33,075 nt of DNA, from NCBI GenBank assembly GCA_052055015.1, contig JBQJIT010000003.1, one strand, 5' to 3'. Under the pieces are notes generated by a model. It was not told the origin of the DNA. It saw nothing but the letters and a program-made list of their open reading frames with translations, and made no database searches. Made by a program: the position numbers and the translations under genes. Source of the DNA: Malassezia furfur (taxonomy: Eukaryota). Positions 644 through 22,025 of the stretch are shown here, piece after piece (the stretch's first letter is position 1; every line of letters starts with the position of its first letter).

Positions 644-1408
644 CTACAATTCGCTCTCGTCGTCTACGGCAATGATGGTATCTTGAGGCTGCGCCTTGTT
701 CACTGGTCGCTGCGGCACCCACCCCATCCCTTGTGAACCAGAGTCACCGCCGTCGCGCATGCGCTGACGCGCCAGGGAGCCCTCTTCCTCAAAGTCAAGG
801 TCGAGGTTGAAGTCGTGAGCGTCGCTCAGATCGATCGCAGTGACGCGTGAGGCGACATTGTAGCCGCTGCGCCGGATGACGCTCAGTAGCCGCGTGCATT
901 GCACAATGTTACGCACGATCAGTAGCACACTGTCCAGTAGTTCTTCGCCGCGACCTGGGCGCTGCGCATACGGGGAGCATCCATGACCCAAGAGCATCAC
1001 CACGAGCGTCAGCACACACAATGCGACGAGGCACAAGTCAAGGATGTTGAATGTCGATTTCCAGAAATGTTTTCCAAACGCGACGAAACGGATTGACACT
1101 TCAGCGACCAAAGCAAGGTTGACGATCAGTTCGAGCACGTAAAACGTGGGGCCTGGGCAGGTGAACAGGAGTGAAAGAACCACGGTGACTAGCGAGAGAG
1201 AGGCCATGGTCGCGTAGAGGTATAAGTAGGTGGTCGAGTGCACGAAGCGGTTAGCAAGGCCCTTGAGAATTTCTTCACGCGACAGGGTGTAGCCTTGTCC
1301 GTTGGGCGTGGGCAGGGCAAATGCGGGCGCAAGGACATCGATTCCGAACGTGTCGTTGCGCGCAGCGTCACCCGTTTCGTGACCGGGAGCGAGTTGCGCC
1401 GAGGCCAT
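644..1408 (-). CDS. Ion_trans/voltage-sensor-like 4-TM membrane protein (254 aa)
   Basis: First in-frame ATG at 1408 (gcaccATGg; the ORF-track start at 1573 is TTG). Four hydrophobic segments with AEVSIRF (S2-like), FWKSTFNILDL (S3-like) and an Arg-containing S4-like helix; no pore domain follows. Confidence 0.65.
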   Translation of the reverse strand: MASAQLAPGHETGDAARNDTFGIDVLAPAFALPTPNGQGYTLSREEILKGLANRFVHSTTYLYLYATMASLSLVTVVLSLLFTCPGPTFYVLELIVNLALVAEVSIRFVAFGKHFWKSTFNILDLCLVALCVLTLVVMLLGHGCSPYAQRPGRGEELLDSVLLIVRNIVQCTRLLSVIRRSGYNVASRVTAIDLSDAHDFNLDLDFEEEGSLARQRMRDGGDSGSQGMGWVPQRPVNKAQPQDTIIAVDDESEL

Positions 1409-1923
1409 GGTGCGGTACGGCGAGTGAACTGCTGGATTGACGTGGTGTTGGTAGGCGCTGGTACTAGCAAGGCTTGGTTTTACCGATCCATCCGATCCTG
1501 GGGACCGCGGCGCTGCAAAGACGGCCGGGCGAGCGGCGCGTGATCGGTGCGTGTAAATGGTGGGCAGAGGCAAGATGCATGCGCTACCGACATCCGTCTA
1601 GATGGCTACCTGCGTGGCAACAGCGCAGGGCCCTTGAAAGATACTATAGTGCTACAATTGTCCACCAGCTGCCCCACACGTCGTGCGCGCGACGCGTTGG
1701 GGCCGCTGTGCCACCGTGGCAGGGGTCATGGTGTCACGTGGCGGTACCCCCCCTCCTCGATTGGCTGCAGGGTCCGGCAGTGCGCGCCTACCAGGCCTCC
1801 CGGCATTCCGCGCGTGGCAACTCCGCAGACAAGGGATCCGACGCTTGCTCTTGCCCGTGTTGCAATACGACTCGTGCGGACTGATATTGACCTGTGTCGA
1901 TTCAGGAGAAGTATCGAGCCGCC

Positions 1924-3245
1924 ATGGATCTACGCGTGGGCGGAAAGTACGTATCTATCGTGTCTGTGAAGAGCCATACTGACACACGGCCGCCACTTGT
2001 GGCGCCCGCAACAGGGTATGCACCACATCGTCGACTCCGTATAACTAACCACAGTACCGAATCGGTAAAAAGATCGGCTCAGGGTCGTTCGGCGACATCT
2101 ACCTGGGCGTCAACATTATCAGCGGCGAAGAGGTCGCGATTAAACTGGAATCGGTGAAAGCCAAGCACCCCCAGCTCGAGTATGAGGCCAAGGTGTACAA
2201 GACGCTCGCTGGCGGCGTCGGCGTGCCGTTTGTCAGGTGGTTTGGGCAGGAGTGCGACTATAATGCGATGGTCATCGACCTGCTGGGTCCATCGCTCGAG
2301 GATCTGTTCAACTTCTGCAACCGGCGCTTCTCGCTCAAGACGGTACTGCTGCTGGCCGACCAGATGATCTCGCGGGTGGAATACATCCATTCGCGCAACT
2401 TCATTCACCGCGACATCAAGCCGGACAACTTCCTGATGGGCATCGGCAAGCGGGGCAATCAGGTAAACGTGATCGACTTTGGTCTCGCCAAAAAGTACCG
2501 CGACCCGAAGACGCATCTGCACATTCCTTACCGCGAAAACAAAAACCTGACGGGCACAGCGCGCTACACGTCGATCAACACACACCTGGGTGTCGAGCAG
2601 TCGCGCCGCGATGACCTCGAGTCGCTCGGGTACGTGCTGATGTACTTCCTGCGGGGCTCGTTGCCCTGGCAGGGACTCAAAGCCGCCACCAAGAAGCAAA
2701 AGTACGAGCGGATCATGGAAAAGAAAATGATGACCTCGACCGAGACGCTGTGCCGCGGCTTCCCTACGGAGATGGCCATATACCTCAACTGCTGCCGCTC
2801 GCTCCGGTTCGACGACCGGCCAGACTACAGCTACCTGCGCAAGCTCTTCCGCGATCTGTTTGTGCGAGAGGGATACCAGTATGACTACGTGTACGACTGG
2901 AGCATCCAGCCACGCGAGCGCGTCGAGCACCCGTCGGCGGGACTGCCTCCGCCCGGGCCTAGCCAGCAGGACACAACGCAGGCCCAGGCCGGCAAGCCGT
3001 CGAGCGCCGCTCAGCAGCTGCCACGGCGCAAGGTGCTTCCCGCCGAGTACGCCGAGCCCACGTCGAGCCGTGCCACGGCCGCGCCGGAATACGCGCGGGG
3101 CTCTGTGCCCGCCGTGATCGGCTCGGAGCGCATGGCCGCCCCTGAGTCGCCGGTCGTGGCCGGTGCGTCGGGCATGGTGGGCAACAACGCGGGACATGTG
3201 TACATGGCGCAGCAGCCGCGTATGGACGAGGCCGGATGGCACTAG
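1924..3245 (+). CDS. HRR25: Casein kinase I (Hrr25/Hhp1 type). Exons 1924-1946, 2015 (1 nt), 2055-3245
   Basis: Spliced N-terminus [28 protein letters not shown]1 motifs [38 protein letters not shown]. Confidence 0.93.
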
Positions 3246-3328
3246 GGGAACGCATGTCGCGAGGAGGAGAGGCACGGTTGCGGTTCTATAGTTTTTTTTT
3301 GCGTCATTAGAAGGCCAGATGTGACACA

Positions 3329-5026
3329 CTAGCTGTGCCGTTCCTCATCGTCGGGAATCGTGGTGCGTTTGGCGTCCGGCATGGGCAGCCGCTTGTTCTC
3401 AATAAACAGGCCGCACAGCAACGCCAAAGCATCGCACACAAACACAAACACAAACACGTTGTGCATCGCATAGGTGTACGACTCAATCGCCGCACCTTGA
3501 AACTCCGCGGGGAGTGTATCCAGCGACGTCGCCTGGTGTCGGATGCGTGCAATCAGCTCGTCGGCTTCAGGGCCCACGATGCGCCAGCGCAGCGCCTTGA
3601 GTAGCGACACCTGCATGATCCCGCCCGTCATGGCCACACCGAGCACCTGGCCGTTCGAGCGGAAAAAGTAGCTCATCCCGGTCGACACGCCAATCGCGTG
3701 CTTTTCGACGCTGTTGATCAGCGCTAGCAGCGTCGTGGTCAACACCCCCGCCTGGCTAAAATACAAAAAGGTGTTGATCACGAACGGCGACACCAGCGGC
3801 GGGTGGTCACCAAAAAGCGTCGAGCGCCAAATCGCAACCGTCGCAACGACAAGGCACGCCACGGTGTACCAATAGTAATAGCCCGTCTTCCGCATGTAGA
3901 ATCCGGAGAACAGACTGCCGGCACTTAGCGCCATGCTGGCTGGAATCATGCGCGCACCAATCACCGAGGGCGGCAGTTTGCCAACCACTTGGAAAAAGAG
4001 CGGAAAGTTGAAGTTGTAGCCAAAGCTGGCAATGCTCAGCCAAAAATTGGTCCATAGTGAAGACCACCCAGACCGCAGCGCAAGTACGTCGAGTGAGATG
4101 AGCGGCACACGCGCCACATAACGCTCCACCACATAGAAGCCGATGATCGACAGTACGGCCACGACGCCGCTCGTGATGACGCGCACATCATCAAAGGGTA
4201 CATCCTTGACACTCACTAGATCCATCGCATACAGCACCGACAGGGGCGCCATGGTCACGACGCTCAGTCCGAGCAGGTCAATGTCCTGCAGACGGCGCCA
4301 CACCGTCCGCTCGTCATCCCCGTGTGGCACCGTGTCGTCCAGAAGAGTGAGCAGCGCAAGGAACGCAACACAGATGATGGGTACCTGGAAGTAGAACGCG
4401 GCACGCCAGCCAAGCGCATCGTTGAAGAATCCACCGATCGGACCACCAATCGCAATTCCAAGACCAAACACAATGTTCGTCAAGCCCTGGTATACGCCGC
4501 GCGAGTGCAGGGGCACAAGGTGGCTCACAATGACACTGCCTACCGTGTTCAGACCCCCACCGCCCATGCCGGCGATGGTGCGCGCGAGCAAGAACTCAGA
4601 CATGGAACGTGCCATACCACATCCCAAAGTGCCTGTCGCAAACAGAATCAGCGCTGTGGATAGCGAGCGTTTGCCGCCGATGATGTCACACAAGCGACCG
4701 TACACCGGCGCTGTGCAGCATGCTGTCAGTAGATATGTGGACCCAATCCAGGCCGCCTTCTCTGAAGCACGGAAGTCGGAAGAAATGTTCCCAAGCAGTA
4801 TCGACACAATGGTCATGTCCAAACTCACGATCAGAGTGATGCACCAGAGCGCCATGCACGTTGTGATAATTACGAAGAACGGTCGCTCTGGCGGATCATG
4901 GTTTCGATCCAGATCCTCACTCCGAGGGTGGTCGTAGAATGCAGAATCTGAGATGATCCGGGGCGCTCCTGCGCCTGCCACCTGTGTGCCACCGAGCAGC
5001 GGCGTACGCTCATCCGCCCGAGTCAT
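3329..5026 (-). CDS. MFS DHA2-type transporter, vacuolar basic amino acid transporter (Vba)-like
   Basis: About 14 hydrophobic segments; WIGSTYLL, PVYGRLCDIIG, ARTIAGMGGGG. Likely start MTRADERTPLL at 5026 carries an acidic dileucine sorting motif; the upstream extension would overlap the UTP11 start. Confidence 0.85.
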   Translation of the reverse strand: MTRADERTPLLGGTQVAGAGAPRIISDSAFYDHPRSEDLDRNHDPPERPFFVIITTCMALWCITLIVSLDMTIVSILLGNISSDFRASEKAAWIGSTYLLTACCTAPVYGRLCDIIGGKRSLSTALILFATGTLGCGMARSMSEFLLARTIAGMGGGGLNTVGSVIVSHLVPLHSRGVYQGLTNIVFGLGIAIGGPIGGFFNDALGWRAAFYFQVPIICVAFLALLTLLDDTVPHGDDERTVWRRLQDIDLLGLSVVTMAPLSVLYAMDLVSVKDVPFDDVRVITSGVVAVLSIIGFYVVERYVARVPLISLDVLALRSGWSSLWTNFWLSIASFGYNFNFPLFFQVVGKLPPSVIGARMIPASMALSAGSLFSGFYMRKTGYYYWYTVACLVVATVAIWRSTLFGDHPPLVSPFVINTFLYFSQAGVLTTTLLALINSVEKHAIGVSTGMSYFFRSNGQVLGVAMTGGIMQVSLLKALRWRIVGPEADELIARIRHQATSLDTLPAEFQGAAIESYTYAMHNVFVFVFVCDALALLCGLFIENKRLPMPDAKRTTIPDDEERHS

Positions 5027-5144
5027 CGTGGAGCGCACAGCATTTCGCATGCACGCAGTCTTATCAACTCCACTTTGTGGAGAAGCGCTCGTTGCATCAC
5101 GTGGTCGCCACTTTTTTTGGCGCCCCCTCCCACCACCGCACGCC

Positions 5145-6070
5145 ATGGCGCTCCGAAACTACGTCCAGCGCCGTAACCATAAGGAGCGCAGCCAACCAGA
5201 GCACCGAAAACGGCTGGGTCTCCTTGAGAAACACAAAGACTATGTCGAGCGTGCGCGTGCCCACCACGTCAAGCGCGACAAGCTCAAACGGCTTCGCGAG
5301 AAAGCGGCAAACAAGAACGAGGATGAGTTCTACACGGGGATGATCGGTACCAAGACCGAAGGCGGCGTGCATGTCGCATCGCGTGGAAACAAGGCGCTTC
5401 CGAACGATGTTGTTGCATTGCTCAAGACGCAGGACGCGGGCTACCTTCGCAAGCAGCTCGTCACCGAACGGAAACGCATTGCCGCGCTCGTCGAACAGCT
5501 TGCACCGCGCGTTCCTGGGATGCGCACCGAGTGGTTGGAGCGGAAGCCCGAGTTTGTCTCGACGTTGCGCCGCGCCAAGCTTCTCGGCGACGCGTCGGCG
5601 CCGGGGTCGAAACCTGGCAAAGCTAACACACGCGTGCAGGGCTTTGGCCAAAAGACGGTCTGGGTGGACGATGTGGACGAATGTATGTACACACGACTGA
5701 CCCAGTAAAACCTACAGCCAAAGCGCACCAAAAGACCAAGGCGCCTGCTGAGCCGCCCACGGCCGTGGAGAAGACGGGCGAACGGCAGCTGGGCATTCTG
5801 ATCCGCGAATTGGCCACGCGTCAGCGTCGGCTGGATGCGCTCACAGAAGCCTCGCAAAAGCTCGATACGGTACGCTCGTTGATGACGACGCGCGGCTCCC
5901 ACGCGGTACCCAAGAAGGTGGCGCGTGAGCTAAAGGAAGCCGTGTCCAAGGACGGCGCTCGAATTACCCCTAATGGTCTGGTCGTTGAGCCCTCACGGGA
6001 CGACGACGAGGACCCAAATGCTACGCGAACGAAGAAACAATACAAATGGTCCAACGAGCGAAAGAAGTGA
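5145..6070 (+). CDS. UTP11: U3 snoRNA-associated protein Utp11. Exons 5145-5682, 5706-6070
   Basis: RRNHKERSQPEHRKRLGLLEKHKDYVERA, NEDEFY, LLKTQDAGY and C-terminal YKWSNERKK; 23-nt intron 5683-5705 (GTATGT..CTGACCCAG) joins the two ORF frames. Confidence 0.93.
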
Positions 6071-14886: not shown

Positions 14887-16027
14887 ATGGTGATCAGCGC
14901 TCGAGGGGCCATTCAGGCCCGTCTAGGCGTACGTTGGGACACTCGTCGGAGCTTTGCAACAACGGTACTACTGGCACATGAGAACCCTCTTGTATGTTTC
15001 TTTGGTAACACAGGGCCTACCACGCAACAACCAGCGCATTCCTCCAACTATGCCCCGTCGTGGAAGTGGGGTGCCTTCCAAACGGCCCATCCCCAATGTA
15101 AAGAAAGTCATTGCAGTTTCGAGCGGAAAGGGCGGTGTGGGAAAAAGTACTGTTGCGGTCAACTTGGCCCTGGGGCTTGCCGCCACCTCATCCGAAGTGC
15201 TTGGTCGTCGCGCGCGTGTTGGTCTGCTCGATTTGGACATCTATGGACCAAGTATTCCGAAATTAATGCATCTCGAAGACATGGGCGAGCCAGAGCTCAC
15301 AAAACGTACGTGGTCACTTAATGGCAGAAGGCGCACTTATTCCCATGACCAACTATTCCGTCCCTTGCATGTCGATGGGCTTCCTCCTGCCCCCGGCCAC
15401 CTCTGGCTCCAATGCGGACACGCCCGTTGTCTGGCGCGGCTTGATGGTGATGAAGGCAGTGCAACAACTCTTGTTCGACGTTGACTGGCGTGCAGGAGTG
15501 ACACCAGACACCGACGCTTCTGACACGGGGCTTCCAGGGCTCGATGTGCTCGTCGTTGACATGCCTCCAGGCACGGGCGATGTGGCCCTGAGCCTCAGTC
15601 AGCTCGTCATGGTGGACGGCGCAGTGATTGTCAGCACTCCACAAGATGTGGCTCTCATCGATGCGAGAAAGGGGATTACAATGTTCCAGAAAGTGAATGT
15701 CCCTGTACGTCTATGAACTCATTCCAGATTCTGGGCCTCGTACTCAATATGTCGCACTTCTTGGCACCGGATACAGGCGTTACCTACCCAATTTTTGGAT
15801 CCAGTGAAAAGTTTGATGCATTGGCAGACCGACTACAAACGCCAGTCTTGGGACGAGTTCCTTTGGAGATGCACGTAAGCCAAGGTGGGGATAGGGGGTT
15901 ACCGGAAGTGATTCGCCCAAAATCCTCCACCGAGGTCCCCGATCCAGCACGCACTGGCCAAGCCGTGTTGAAGGAAATGGCCCGCCTAACGTGGAAACAG
16001 CTTGCAATAGTTGATGCAGCCGAATAG
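14887..16027 (+). CDS. IND1: Mitochondrial Mrp/NBP35-family P-loop ATPase (Ind1/NUBPL-like). Exons 14887-14991, 15014-15305, 15328-15704, 15728-16027
   Basis: Spliced Arg-rich presequence then [59 protein letters not shown]; introns of 22, 22 and 23 nt. Confidence 0.87.
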
Positions 16028-16128
16028 CTTGTACTTCCGCAATGCCATGATCACAGCCCTAGTTTATCTCGAAACCCATCAATTATCCCCTAACTGGTTG
16101 GATGCAACTCAACTAACTCATAACATGA

Positions 16129-18171
16129 TTAAATGTGGTTGTTCCCCATGGTTTGCATAGGGTATTGGTCCTTTGCGACGTATTCACCCGTGATAGGCGG
16201 AGCCGCACCTGCAGGCGTCTCGTAGGTAGGCAGAGTCTTTTCGCTCTGGCTGACAGGGACGCCGTCACCATTGAACTCACGGTCTTCCGCACGCTCAATA
16301 GCACGCTCGTACGTGTCATCCTTCGACATGGCCCACGGGCTCTTCTCGGGCAGCTCATCGCTGACAACGTTCTGCGAGCGCGAAAGCACGTAGTCCTTGA
16401 GGAAAAGCGAGAGGATGAAAACCACACCGGAGAATACAATACCGGCCCAAAGACCACGCGCAGCAGCGTCATTCCAGGCACGGATCTGCGTTTGCACCAC
16501 CGGAGTATTACGGTCAGAACCCGTACCGTAGTTAGTGTAAAGTTGCAGCGACTCTTGCATAGCCTGCGTGTAGTCAATACCGCGGTATTCCATCAGCTTC
16601 TTGGGGAACTGATCGTTGAGGATAGCAGTAAAGATAGTGGTACCAATGGATTGGCCAATCGACTGGAAGAGCATGACGACCGCCGTCACCATGGCAACAT
16701 CTTGGTGGCGCACGGTTACTTGCGACGAAATGGTAATAACATCACCAACCATACCACCGCCCATACCAAGGAGAATTTGGGGCCAAACTGCTTGGACCAT
16801 AGTTGTACCATCATGGCGGTAACGGATCATCAAGCCATATGCAATCAGACGAATTCCAGCGCCGCACACAGTAAGATACTTGTACCGGCGAGTGTAGAAA
16901 ATGATCGCGCCCGCAATAACACCGAAAATGGTGAGGGAGAGCGAGTCCGTGTAAGTGAAGTAGTTAGTCTTGTCCTCGCCCTGAGGAAGATTCAGACCAA
17001 TCGAGCGCCAGAAGAAGAGCATCTGGAAAGAAATGTTGAACGACATGAAGTCGAAAAATGCAATCAAGATTGCGAGGACAACGCTCGAGTTCAACCACCG
17101 TTGGCGAATGAATGGACGGGGTGAGATGTAGTACTCATAGAGGGGGACCACAAGAATTAAAACACCACCGACAGTAAGAAGAGCAATGACCCAGTCTGTG
17201 CTCCACCCGATTGTACCACCACGACTCAAAGCCAGAAGCAGGAAGATGAAGCCAGCAAGGATCAGGATCATCCCGCCAATGTCCGCATCCAAAAGGAACT
17301 GCTTGAATCCATACCAGAACCCGTGACGAAGGTAAGGATGGACAGGTACCAGTCCACTGCGCTTCGCCTTACGTTCCAGATAGTAAAGAATTGTCATGAT
17401 GGGCGCCATAGTGACGGGAATAAGGATACAGAACATGCCGAAACCCCAACGCCAGTGCGAAGTCTCGACCTGAGTCGTAGTGATTGCCGCGGAAATCTTG
17501 GGCGCGGTCGCAAAAGTGATGAAAAACGGCATGGTCACAAAGGCAATACCGAAGGCCCTCATGCGCGCCGACAAAAAGTCGGCCAAAATGATCCAAATGA
17601 CGATGAGCAGCCCAGAGTTGCCCACTGCCTGCAAGGCAATACCTGCCGTCTGTGTGTTATTGTTTTGGCCGACCGCCAGAATCAGATAGCCCAAAACATA
17701 GAAGAAAAGTGTCACACAAGCGGCAAAAAAGCGTCCATAGATATCAGCGAGTTTACCAACCGCGAGTTTGGCAACACCAGATACAACACCTTGAATCGCC
17801 ACCGCAGTGAAGTAGCTAGGCGATCCAGTTGGTCGGACAGTTGCCATGACCCATTGAAGGTATGTCAAAGTGGTCAGGTTATCTATCGAATAAACGTAAT
17901 AGACAATGAAGAGGGCCACCATCATGAAATACCAGGTCTTGCCTGTCAGAGCGTAAGTAGCCTGTGCAATGGCCACGCCAACTTGCTTCGCATCATCGTC
18001 GTTCTTGAGATCAGCGTCCACATCTTGGGCAACCTCATCAGCGTCGGGTAGCTTCGCTACGGGCTTGTCATCCACAACGGGGCCAGTGGACTGGCCAGGC
18101 TTTTCAAACTCCGGAGGATAAACCTTCCAGAGATGACTGACAAACTCCTTGACCTTCTCTCCCATCGGCAT
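16129..18171 (-). CDS. Siderophore-iron transporter (SIT/ARN family, MFS)
   Basis: 680-aa intronless ORF with about 14 TM segments; KLADIYGR, WRWGFGMF.IL.P, RRYKYL, QILLGMGGG, SQVTVRHQDVAMVTA are SIT-family-like motifs. Confidence 0.85.
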   Translation of the reverse strand: MPMGEKVKEFVSHLWKVYPPEFEKPGQSTGPVVDDKPVAKLPDADEVAQDVDADLKNDDDAKQVGVAIAQATYALTGKTWYFMMVALFIVYYVYSIDNLTTLTYLQWVMATVRPTGSPSYFTAVAIQGVVSGVAKLAVGKLADIYGRFFAACVTLFFYVLGYLILAVGQNNNTQTAGIALQAVGNSGLLIVIWIILADFLSARMRAFGIAFVTMPFFITFATAPKISAAITTTQVETSHWRWGFGMFCILIPVTMAPIMTILYYLERKAKRSGLVPVHPYLRHGFWYGFKQFLLDADIGGMILILAGFIFLLLALSRGGTIGWSTDWVIALLTVGGVLILVVPLYEYYISPRPFIRQRWLNSSVVLAILIAFFDFMSFNISFQMLFFWRSIGLNLPQGEDKTNYFTYTDSLSLTIFGVIAGAIIFYTRRYKYLTVCGAGIRLIAYGLMIRYRHDGTTMVQAVWPQILLGMGGGMVGDVITISSQVTVRHQDVAMVTAVVMLFQSIGQSIGTTIFTAILNDQFPKKLMEYRGIDYTQAMQESLQLYTNYGTGSDRNTPVVQTQIRAWNDAAARGLWAGIVFSGVVFILSLFLKDYVLSRSQNVVSDELPEKSPWAMSKDDTYERAIERAEDREFNGDGVPVSQSEKTLPTYETPAGAAPPITGEYVAKDQYPMQTMGNNHI

Positions 18172-18217
18172 CTTGAAACGAAGAGGTAGGCTAATTTGCT
18201 AACCTGTTTCCTCTCGC

Positions 18218-18223
18218 TTTATA
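18218..18223 (-). promoter_or_regulatory. Candidate TATA box (TATAAA) of the siderophore transporter
   Basis: TATAAA on the minus strand about 47 nt upstream of ATG 18171. Confidence 0.45.
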
Positions 18224-18383
18224 TGTATGAGCCGCTGTATCTGATTACTGCACCCAATTCTCGCTTGCCAAAATAGCTTTAGCGTAGCTGCAAAAAAATT
18301 ACGGCATTGGGCTGTACGACACCGTATATGCATAATTCACCAAACAAGCAACATCATGCATAATTTTTTTGGAGAAGCCCGAC

Positions 18384-19100
18384 GCTGATTGGTCTAATGA
18401 TATTATCAGCACAGATCAGTGCTTGGCAGAAACGCCCCGAGAAGATCGCTGCGATCCTGCCAATAAGAGAATCTTCTCCACCCATGCGCAGATCGACGGC
18501 GCCTGCTTGCGGAATTGTCCGCAAGGGGTCTGTACCCCTTGGAGGGGTTCATCAGCATCACGCGATCATCGGCTAGACGAAATGAACCCCGGGCGGAGCA
18601 AACATATTGTCCAACCATATGTCGTACATCAGCTTCATGGTTAAAAGGCCCATCCCTATGTAAATAGGACAGCACATGTTGTAGTCTTAATGCTCCTGGA
18701 ATCCAAGTCAATCATTACGTAATCCTCAGGGTTTGCTTCGGATTGTTTCTTAGTAATTGTTCATTGTTTTTACGCATCCTACGCATCGGAAAAGCTGAGT
18801 TCTGGTCAGCGTGCCCAGATGTTGAGAAGTGACGGTTGATGTACGATGACGTCCTTTCTGGCACACGTGACCACAGGCTTCGCCCGGGCGCACTTGGACC
18901 TTAGGTTCTTTGGGGATCCCTTAGCTAAGCCAATTAAGTTGCCTTTGAGCCCCGTTCCTCTTACCTAAAATGCTTCTTTTTGAGCCAGGGAAAGGAATGC
19001 TGATTGGCTCAGCATTAGGATATGCCTGTGCCGCATCACAGTGGAGAATGTCTCCACACTGAAGGGTTTGGCACTACAACAGTGCCGGCTGATTGGCTCA
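18384..19100. promoter_or_regulatory. Cluster of CCAAT boxes and Yap/Pap1-type bZIP sites in a divergent promoter
   Basis: GCTGATTGG at 18384, 18999 and 19088; ATTACGTAAT at 18714-18723; TTAGTAA at 18750-18756. Confidence 0.5.
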
Positions 19101-19234
19101 TGCAAGCTACCCTTGGCGCTGCTTATGCGCAAGCTCAGCCCCACAATGGTGGAGCGAACGGCCTGGTCGCGTTTTAAGCCGGAGTCGCGTAGAGGCAGGC
19201 GGAAACGCCGGTTGTTTTCTTCGCTAAGACTGCC

Positions 19235-21110
19235 ATGGATTCGTATACCGGCGCCACAGCCCAGGATCCTGTAACCAGGGACCCGAAGGTCAAAGAGACG
19301 GAGTCGTCGCCCGCATTCTATGAACAGAAAGTAGTGGCCCCTGGGCAAGATGCCTATGATTACGACCCGAATGAGCAAGTGTCGTTCCTCGGTCTTCGCG
19401 GCGTGAAGCTCAACATTATGATTGCTATCTGTGCTGGTGTCGGTTTTGTGCTTTTTGGTTATGATCAAGGTGTTATGGGCAGTCTCTTGACGTTGCCCCC
19501 TTTCCGCTACGCATTCCCCCAAATCGACAACATTACCCCTGATCCCGGCGCAGACCCTCGGCTGCGCGGCGACCCTAGCAACTCTACGCTTCAAGGTGCT
19601 ACTATTGGTATTTACGAGATTGGCTGTTTTGCCGGTTCCGTTACCTGCATTCTGTGGGGAAACATCCTTGGTCGTCGCCGGATGATCTGGATTGGCAGTC
19701 TGTACGTGGTTCAACCAGGAAATGCTTACCTCCAGTTTGATGATGGTTGGCGCTATTATTCAAGTGTGTGCCGGTGAGCCCGACTCGGACAAAGGCGCTT
19801 TGGCCATGCTGTGGATCGGCCGTATCATTGCAGGCATTGGTAACGGCCAACACACGTCGACTGTATGTAACTCAAACTGTCTTGACTGACCACAGATCCC
19901 TATGTGGCAATCCGAATGCTCTCCGCCGCACAATCGTGGCATGCTCATCATGATTGAGGGCTCCCTGATTAGCTTTGGCATCATGATTTCTTACTGGGTT
20001 GACTTTGCCTTGTACTGGGCATGGAGGTCGGACCCCGGCAACCCACACGAAAGTGCTTCGTGGCAGGTGCCGATTGCATTCCAAATTGTCCTGATTCTGC
20101 CCACGTTCTTGACCATTTGGATGCCTGAGAGTCCGCGTTGGCTTATGCTGCGCGGTCAGCAGAAGGAGGCCCGTCGTGTGCTCTCGGCCTTGGATGATGT
20201 TCCGCTCGGAGACCCTTCGATTGACGCCCACATTGCGGAAATCAAGCACAGTCTTGCGCTCTCGCAATCGTCGAAGGCCACGGACATGTTCAAGCAGGGC
20301 AAAAACCACAACTTCCACCGTGTCGCGCTTGCGTTTGTCATTCAAATGTTCCAGCAAATCAGTGGTATCAACCTGATCACGTACTATGCCGGCACGATCT
20401 TTGAGAACAGTATTGGCCTGAAGCCCGTTGAGTCACGTATCCTTGCTGCCTGCAACGGTACCGAGTACTTTATGGCTTCCATTATTGCCATCTTCACCAT
20501 TGAGCGCATTGGTCGCCGCAAGTTGATGATTTGGTGCGCTTTGGGTATGGCGGGCACCATGGCTATCCTTTGTGGTCTTCTCAGCCATGCTGCGCTCGAT
20601 ATGCCAACTCCAGACTACGACCCTAGTGCAGCGCGGAACAAGGGGCCTGCGATCGCTGCGTGTGTCTTCCTCTTTATCTTCAACTCCTTCTTTGCGATCG
20701 GTTGGCTGGGTATGACGTGGCTTTACCCCGCCGAGTGCACGCCGCTGAGTATTCGTGCCCAGGCAAACGGTGTCTCGACGAGTGCCAACTGGCTCTTCAA
20801 CTTCATGGTGGTCATGATTACCCCTGTCGCATTTGCAAACATCCACAACTACACATACCTGATCTTTGCGGTCATCAACCTTCTCATGGCTCCTGCTTCC
20901 TGGTGGATCTTCCCCGAGACGGCTGGCCGCAGTCTCGAGGAGATGGATGACATCTTTGCGCGCTCGAGTGTTTGGAACCCGTACGATGCAGTGCGTATCG
21001 AGAAGCAGACGCCGCGTCGCTACGACAAGTACGGCAACATGAAGGAGGTGCTGATCTCGGAGACGGAGCAGCTCGAGCCGGTGGAGCGCTTCAGTGCGGA
21101 CTATCATTAA
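19235..21110 (+). CDS. Sugar porter family transporter, Stl1-like (glycerol/polyol:H+ symporter). Exons 19235-19701, 19736-19862, 19896-21110
   Basis: LFGYDQGVM, YEIGCF.G, LGRRR, GRIIAGIGNG, T|IPMWQSEC..HNRG.LI.IEG, PESPRWL, QQISGINLITYY, PETAGRSLEEMD; introns of 34 and 33 nt. Confidence 0.9.
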
Positions 21111-21323: not shown

Positions 21324-22025
21324 ATGTCCAATCCGTGGCGCGATACCAAGGGATTCTCATTCCACTCAATATGTATCCAGGTAAAGGACATTGAAGAGAG
21401 TGTCATGTTCTATCAGGAGGTGTTCGGTACGTTTGCGCGCCCTGACTCAGGAATGGACATGGTGCGCGAAATGAGCGTTGGGTAGGTTGTTGGGGCGCTT
21501 ACGCAGCGATATCAGCAAAGTCTGGCTGCGGTTCCCTGCCAACAAGGATTCGCCGCTGTTTGGTCATGCACATTCGCTCATTGAACTTGTGCAGCGCAAG
21601 TGCGTCGTGACAAGCTCACGCAGGGGCACCGACACCGATGCCAACTTTCAGACGCGCGCGACGGGCGGTGTACGTTTCGCATGGCTAACGTACGCAGGGT
21701 TTCCACCACTTGTGCTTCAGTGTGCCTGACATCTTCAAAGCCAAGCGTCGCTTCGAGTCGCTTGGCGTAGAGACGGTCGATATCGGCTCGGCCAAAAAGT
21801 GCGCGCGCGATGCTGACGTGCAGCGACATCATCGTCATCCACGACCCCGATCATTACCCCATCCAACTCATTAGCCAGGACTTTGATATTCACGAGGAAC
21901 TCGAAAAGGCATGCCGCCAAGTTGTGATGGAGGGTGCCGAGCAGGCCATTCAGGACCTCCGCTTGGACAACAACCCTATCACGCTTGAGGAGGCAGGCAT
22001 CAAAGTCGCATCTCAGGCTCAATAG
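21324..22025 (+). CDS. Glyoxalase I-like VOC-fold protein, 191 aa. Exons 21324-21426, 21451-21481, 21507-21599, 21624-21669, 21698-21798, 21824-22025
   Basis: Five GT-AG introns of 24, 25, 24, 28 and 25 nt give one 576-nt frame: FHSICIQVKDIEESVMFYQEVFGM...LIELVQRKGTDTD...GFHHLCFSVPDI...FESLGV...IHDPDHYPIQLI. Confidence 0.8.

Follow-up and report, generated by a model that had tools for sequence, protein, structure and literature searches.

A probable one-nucleotide exon between two tiny introns in a casein kinase I gene of a Malassezia-like yeast

In the 33,075-nt stretch of DNA analysed here as a whole (hereafter, the window), the reading frame of a casein kinase I (CK1) gene very probably depends on a single G, at position 2015, that lies between two tiny introns (Table 1). 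We consider, with high confidence, that this layout is best explained by a real one-nucleotide exon. In the genomic sequence, each intron comes with a canonical donor, a branch motif, and an acceptor of its own. The layout had been proposed in an earlier note on this DNA, and its coordinates and motifs (the ATG at 1924, the end of exon 1 at 1946, CTGAC at 1979-1983, CTAAC at 2045-2049, and the others) were all found as given when checked by script. Translation agreed that the join AA + G + TAC leads into the canonical start of CK1, with a product of 404 aa, and also that the frame is lost otherwise, as the products without the G and with full retention were 41 and 77 aa long, respectively, and both ended at the TGA at 2155-2157. 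The central claim, i.e., that two complete GT-AG introns abut a one-nucleotide exon that restores the frame, was supported by a transcript-like protein (P0001), three related contigs, an enumeration of splice models, and chance controls.

Table 1. Features of the casein kinase I gene and of other parts of the window (+ and -, strand)
Feature	Position	Strand	Description	Basis or remark
Exon 1, coding part	1924-1946	+	23 nt; ATG in GCCGCCATGG context; MDLRVGG plus AA of a Lys codon; ends GGAAA, phase 2	script-checked
Intron 1	1947-2014	+	68 nt; donor GTACGT 1947-1952; branch TACTGAC 1977-1983 (branch A 1982); acceptor CAG 2012-2014	
Candidate hairpin	1987-2008	+	between branch site and acceptor of intron 1; GC-rich; -12 kcal/mol	z = -1.52
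Putative one-nucleotide exon	2015	+	G; third base of the Lys codon AA+G	
Intron 2	2016-2054	+	39 nt; donor GTATGC 2016-2021; branch AACTAAC 2043-2049 (branch A 2048); acceptor CAG 2052-2054	
Exon 2	2055-3245	+	begins TAC; 396 codons and stop TAG 3243-3245; without further intron	open frame 2049..3245
Open reading frame with weak Ion_trans match	644-1597	-	upstream of the kinase gene	
MFS transporter open reading frame	3329-5158	-	609 codons	converges on the kinase gene
Candidate intron splitting a Utp11 gene	5683-5705 or 5683-5717	+	23 or 35 nt; GTATGTACACACGACTGACCCAG...	
Intron in a sugar transporter gene	19863-19895	+	33 nt; GTATGT...GACTGACCACAG; CTRAC-CACAG ending as in intron 2	Pfam profile continuity

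The gene itself is identified, by its predicted product, as a casein kinase I of the Hrr25/CK1-delta type from a Malassezia-like basidiomycete yeast, with the kinase domain, the identity to orthologues, the N-terminal strand, and the glycine loop of this family all present. The product of exon 2 matched the Pfam family Pkinase (E 6.6e-28), and its top named relatives were the kinases of Malassezia yamatoensis (91% identity) and of M. caprae and M. vespertilionis (Hrr25p; 83%). Names among the protein-search matches included Hrr25p, hhp1, and casein kinase I.

The protein P0001, whose only source is Logan run assemblies, is 404 aa long and aligned with the entire exon 2 query (100%) at 99% identity. 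Its start and its length are exactly those of the product of the micro-exon model. The cluster that it represents contains 11 members and 5 contigs, the longest of which is 1705 nt. Since the open reading frame of P0001 is uninterrupted on a contig of at most 1705 nt, this contig must be free of the 108 nt that separate exons 1 and 2 in the window, which suggests that P0001 was assembled from spliced RNA. Four residues differ between P0001 and the protein of the window, so that P0001 comes from a relative or from another strain, most likely the same strain or a sister strain. Its residues 1-60 are 100% identical to the annotated CK1 of Rhodotorula toruloides and of several other basidiomycetes.

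Related genomic loci were collected by scanning metagenome contigs with exon 2, which gave 555 pattern matches. Relatives are encoded by 508 of these, and the analysis continued with the best 80. Among these best 80 of 508, the motif LRVGxx[YF]R.G was contiguous and had a single aromatic residue in 76 loci, had two aromatic residues in none, and was absent from one. The remaining three loci (L001, L002, and L003, on genomic contigs of 21.7, 277, and 283 kb, respectively) were 81-84% identical to the window at the nucleotide level within the initial 870 nt of exon 2, and each showed a 23-nt exon 1 ending GGAAA and the layout AAA/GTACGT..CTRAC..CAG/G/GTATGT..CTRAC..CAG/TAC, with one CTRAY motif per intron. 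The lengths of introns 1 and 2 were 67 and 45 nt in L001 and 52 and 54 nt in both L002 and L003, compared to 68 and 39 nt in the window. In all three loci, the micro-exon model yields the same N-terminus, and omission of the G leads to a frameshift and an early stop. The earlier note had named the conservation of CAG-G-GT in CK1 orthologues as a check on its proposal, and this core was indeed kept in 3/3 of the related loci that have introns here among the best 80.

The intron bodies around this core were 46-67% identical between lineages (global alignment). When the window and the three related loci were aligned with MAFFT, the G of L002 and L003 fell into another column than the G of the window, and because the micro-exon of these two loci was thus misplaced, the four were compared by parsing their architecture. 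L002 and L003, whose exons 2 are 96% identical, had diverged at 8 of the 75 intron positions free of constraint, and at none of the 32 positions of the donors, branch sites, acceptors, and micro-exon. What is conserved, as read from these four sequences, is an architecture and not an alignable position or sequence block.

For the chance controls, the interior of the intervening sequence was subjected to mononucleotide shuffling (20000 trials each), and the layout was defined as YAG-N-GTRNGY plus a CTRAY motif in each half. The full layout appeared in 1 of 20000 shuffles for the window and in 4, 3, and 0 of 20000 for the related loci. Both strands of the 33-kb window together contain 4 YAG-N-GTRNGY sites, and the one at 2015 is the only site of these 4 that has a donor and a branch motif upstream, a branch motif and an acceptor downstream, and open frames on both sides. 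The layout at 2015 exceeds chance expectation.

Alternative splice models were enumerated at 1927-2080, where 22 GT/GC donors and 6 AG acceptors make up 61 candidate introns of at least 15 nt, and every one- and two-intron combination of these was tested. Gene predictors find some model for this region because the frame is kept by many of these combinations. The canonical N-terminus was produced by just two of the enumerated models, i.e., the pair of introns 1947-2014 and 2016-2054 and a model in which G1972 is the one-nucleotide exon. The latter was rejected, as its GCCATA donor is poor and its 25-nt first intron is without a branch motif. Across all one- and two-intron GT/GC-AG models, sound splice signals and the canonical N-terminus came together in the G2015 model only.

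One of the in-frame combinations pairs the weaker donor GTATCT (1951) with the acceptor at 2054, so that a single canonical intron (1951-2054) would yield a 405-aa kinase with an extra Tyr (GGKYYRIG) and the CAG-G-GTATGC of the window would be a product of chance. Such an intron has GT-AG borders and keeps the frame, and an equivalent of the 1951 donor (GTATTT or GTATTC, 4 bases 3' of GTACGT) is present in L001-L003; with this option available in the window and in all three related loci, the reading frame alone is insufficient against it. We nevertheless consider a single intron from 1951 very unlikely, as P0001 is a 404-aa protein with just one Tyr there, and the two aromatic residues that it would place at the site occur in 0/80 of the related loci, against one aromatic residue in 76/80 (best 80 of 508). 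Moreover, donors of the 1951 type are without a G at +5, whereas all supported introns in the window have one, and a single intron leaves unaccounted for both the CAG-G-GTATG with its second branch motif in three diverged lineages and how seldom shuffles produced the layout.

A second alternative removes the micro-exon altogether while leaving the product unchanged. The sequence AGTAC occurs at 1946-1950 and again at 2053-2057, and owing to this repeat at both ends, one 107-nt intron with non-canonical borders (GT..CA at 1947-2053, TA..AG at 1948-2054, or GT..AC at 1951-2057) would give an mRNA and a protein identical to those of the micro-exon model, so that P0001 is unable to separate the two. 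The possible border pairs of a 107-nt intron are GT..CA, TA..AG, GT..AC, AC..GT, CG..TA, and AG..AC, and to our knowledge none of them is a recognised spliceosomal class. A U12-type (AT-AC) intron or another recognised non-canonical single intron was accordingly rejected, with none of the 107-nt border pairs matching such a class. We assign this alternative only the slightest probability, as it leaves unaccounted for the internal acceptor-G-donor and the two branch motifs that are kept in L001-L003, the absence of substitutions between L002 and L003 at the signal positions, and the scarcity of the layout among shuffled sequences.

With G2015 as an exon, each of the two short U2-type GT-AG introns would be recognised independently by intron definition, since introns 1 and 2 are each complete and thus each definable on its own, and the removal of both would create Lys-Tyr and with it the N-terminus that is universal in CK1. 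The intron 1 acceptor shares 6-7 bases with the donor of intron 2, so that the two splicing events are most likely sequential. In all four sequences, removal of intron 1 changes the context of the second donor from AGG/GTATGC to AAG/GTATGC, and this better context, together with the order of transcription, would favour removal of the upstream intron first. Within intron 1, the first AG 3' of the branch motif is the AG of the CAG at 2012-2014, i.e., of the predicted acceptor, which fits a scanning second step. The bases shared by acceptor and donor make this gene a natural test of an intron-defining spliceosome that faces two abutting introns, including the order of their removal.

Inclusion of the micro-exon would probably be constitutive. 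If donor 1 were instead paired with branch site 2, 108 nt would be removed, the G would be skipped, the message would be frameshifted, and translation would end at the stop at 2155-2157. The earlier note had suggested a possible on/off or NMD switch. Conceivably, most splicing could take this non-productive course (1947-2054 out, G skipped), with the productive form minor or conditional, so that the site would act as a dosage or on/off valve via nonsense-mediated decay. Donor 1, branch site 2, and acceptor 2 do form a canonical 108-nt intron, and the G-less product is frameshifted, with the stop at 2155-2157 in the window and early stops in L001-L003. However, CK1 of this type is essential in yeasts studied, the only transcript-like product seen (P0001) is the productive form, and in a genome of mostly tiny introns, donor 1 would more likely pair with the branch site closer to it; we regard such a valve as extremely unlikely and constitutive inclusion as the more plausible course.

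Introns as small as these two are normal in this lineage, on the basis of the 33-nt intron in the sugar transporter gene of the window and of the curated annotation of M. sympodialis, for which a mean intron size of 30 bp and RNA-seq support for 99% of 5350 introns are tabulated (PMC5389616, Table 2). A scan of the window for strong donor/branch/acceptor triplets that bridge open frames returned 46 candidates. As the DNA is rich in GC, many of these are spurious; two, those in the sugar transporter gene and in the Utp11 gene (Table 1), were checked against Pfam. In the sugar transporter gene, the upstream piece ends with positions 80-119 of the Sugar_tr profile and the downstream piece starts with positions 123-452. 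Intron 2 of the kinase gene is typical, with 39 nt and a branch A 6 nt from the end of the acceptor. Intron 1 has a branch-to-acceptor distance of 32 nt, compared to 5-12 nt in the other small introns examined. The candidate hairpin between its branch site and acceptor (Table 1) could reduce the effective distance, but it was not significant, as 16/200 shuffles folded at least as well. A separate candidate intron of 28 nt at 21670-21697 (+; GTACGT...GGCTAAC...CAG) is followed by G-GTTTCC and thus forms another AG-G-GT; its second donor is poor, and the sole family match there is a weak one to Glyoxalase_4 (E 0.0064).

The earlier note had called one-nucleotide exons very rare; this part of its claim stands, with the qualification that they are no longer unprecedented, fungi included, according to the accessible texts of two reports (PMC12940212, PMC12230235). 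One such exon has been proven in APC11 of Arabidopsis thaliana, where substitutions in it reappeared in the cDNA (Guo and Liu 2015, PMC4674806). As described in the accessible part of that paper, APC11 resembles G2015 in having one exonic nucleotide between GT-AG introns that is essential for the frame, and in being mis-annotated in the database. It differs in that the base is an A located 333 nt into an annotated 422-nt intron and has been proven experimentally, whereas the Malassezia case is a predicted exon, a G flanked by introns of 68 and 39 nt in a fungus whose introns are ultra-short.

A one-nucleotide exon with SRA read support was reported in 2026 for the CYP621A P450 genes of Fusarium, and it is presented by its authors as the second example and the first from fungi (PMC12940212). 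From what the accessible text of that report gives, CYP621A shares with G2015 a fungal origin, the AG-G-GT core (AGGGT), an inference from phase incompatibility and orthologue conservation, and wrong models in databases. It concerns a rarely expressed P450 of ascomycetes, in which the exon supplies the second base of a Gly codon, with SRA reads behind it, whereas the Malassezia case concerns a housekeeping kinase of a basidiomycete yeast and the third base of a Lys codon, with RNA support that is inferred via P0001. Furthermore, a long-read annotation of Coprinopsis cinerea includes 13 one-nucleotide exons in 13 genes (PMC12230235); these are, in the accessible text, likewise internal 1-nt exons of a basidiomycete whose omission breaks the frame, and they differ from the present case in belonging to an organism whose introns are of ordinary size for fungi. 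In the main texts of the open-access literature (supplements apart), we found no earlier report of a one-nucleotide exon in Malassezia or in CK1.

Recursive splicing at zero-nucleotide ratchet points (AG/GT), which PMC5587772 also mentions, has been described for long introns of Drosophila. The layout at G2015 shares with it an acceptor that abuts a donor, removal in two steps, and an upstream exon that completes the context of the second donor, and differs from it in keeping one nucleotide, in the tiny size of the introns, and in a second donor that is complete before the first step. Zero-nucleotide recursive splicing as such was rejected as a reading of the site, as one G that the frame requires stands between CAG and GTATGC. 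Stwintrons (spliceosomal twin introns) and the one-nucleotide intron shift model (Fekete et al. 2017, PMC5587772), as far as the accessible text of that paper describes them, are also fungal, involve intron definition and two consecutive splicing reactions, and concern positions 1 nt apart. In a stwintron, however, the external intron has one of its splice signals split by an internal intron, while the two Malassezia introns are complete and mutually independent. Under this definition, taken from the same text, a stwintron reading was likewise rejected, with the splice signals of both introns uninterrupted.

An origin of introns 1 and 2 by tandem duplication was also considered and rejected, as their bodies were no more alike than shuffles in any of the four sequences (of 2000 shuffles each, 1474, 352, 1659, and 1838 reached as good a score). 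In another Malassezia-like lineage, the open reading frames P0030 and P0031, from genomic contigs, contain 7 in-frame residues (VRSELTQ) between GGK and YRIG, and at the protein level the codons of this insert would fit one phase-0 intron of 21 nt (GT.CG....CT.AC.CAG) where the other sequences have the micro-exon layout. The last residues of the model P0023 from M. vespertilionis, again seen as protein, would agree with one phase-2 intron. These protein read-throughs are the only hints towards a speculative reading, in which the introns described here fill both of two neighbouring positions, in phases 2 and 0 and separated by 1 nt, which are apparently filled singly in related yeasts, and the micro-exon is a living intermediate of a one-nucleotide intron shift that does not take the stwintron route. 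We consider such a history unlikely; if it were true, the micro-exon would have been retained because imprecise loss of either intron destroys an essential kinase.

The micro-exon also appears to have left its mark on gene annotation. Only 2 of the 24 relatives fetched (cluster representatives) had the canonical N-terminus, namely P0001 and a model from Ustilago loliicola. As the earlier note had anticipated, gene predictors usually missed this exon; among the cluster representatives, the named Malassezia models (M. yamatoensis, M. caprae, M. vespertilionis, Malassezia sp. CBS 17886, and M. cuniculi) had the canonical N-terminus in 0/5 cases. The faulty models start within an intron, skip half of exon 1, or translate part of an intron, and in 5/5 of the named Malassezia models fetched, the wrong N-terminus garbles the first beta strand, which precedes the glycine loop. 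The M. yamatoensis protein P0006 has an annotated start of MRTNRQ followed by YRIG, which, at the protein level, fits translation from the ATG inside a GTATGC donor; if it does start there, intron 2 would be about 20 nt long in this species.

A blind spot for AG-N-GT probably affects other genes in the compact genomes of Malassezia as well. If real, G2015 adds to a very short list of one-nucleotide exons, in a housekeeping and normally essential kinase, and in the genus that dominates the fungi of human skin. The layout is kept in at least three Malassezia-like lineages, lies in a genome of ultra-short introns, and is mis-annotated systematically.

Apart from the neighbouring genes listed in Table 1, two further open reading frames lie at or near the kinase gene, one antisense to it (2079..3344) and one upstream (1468..1884). 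Neither had a Pfam match, and both were taken as GC-driven noise. The G+C content of the window was 0.49-0.55 at 16001-21000, compared to 0.58-0.68 elsewhere.
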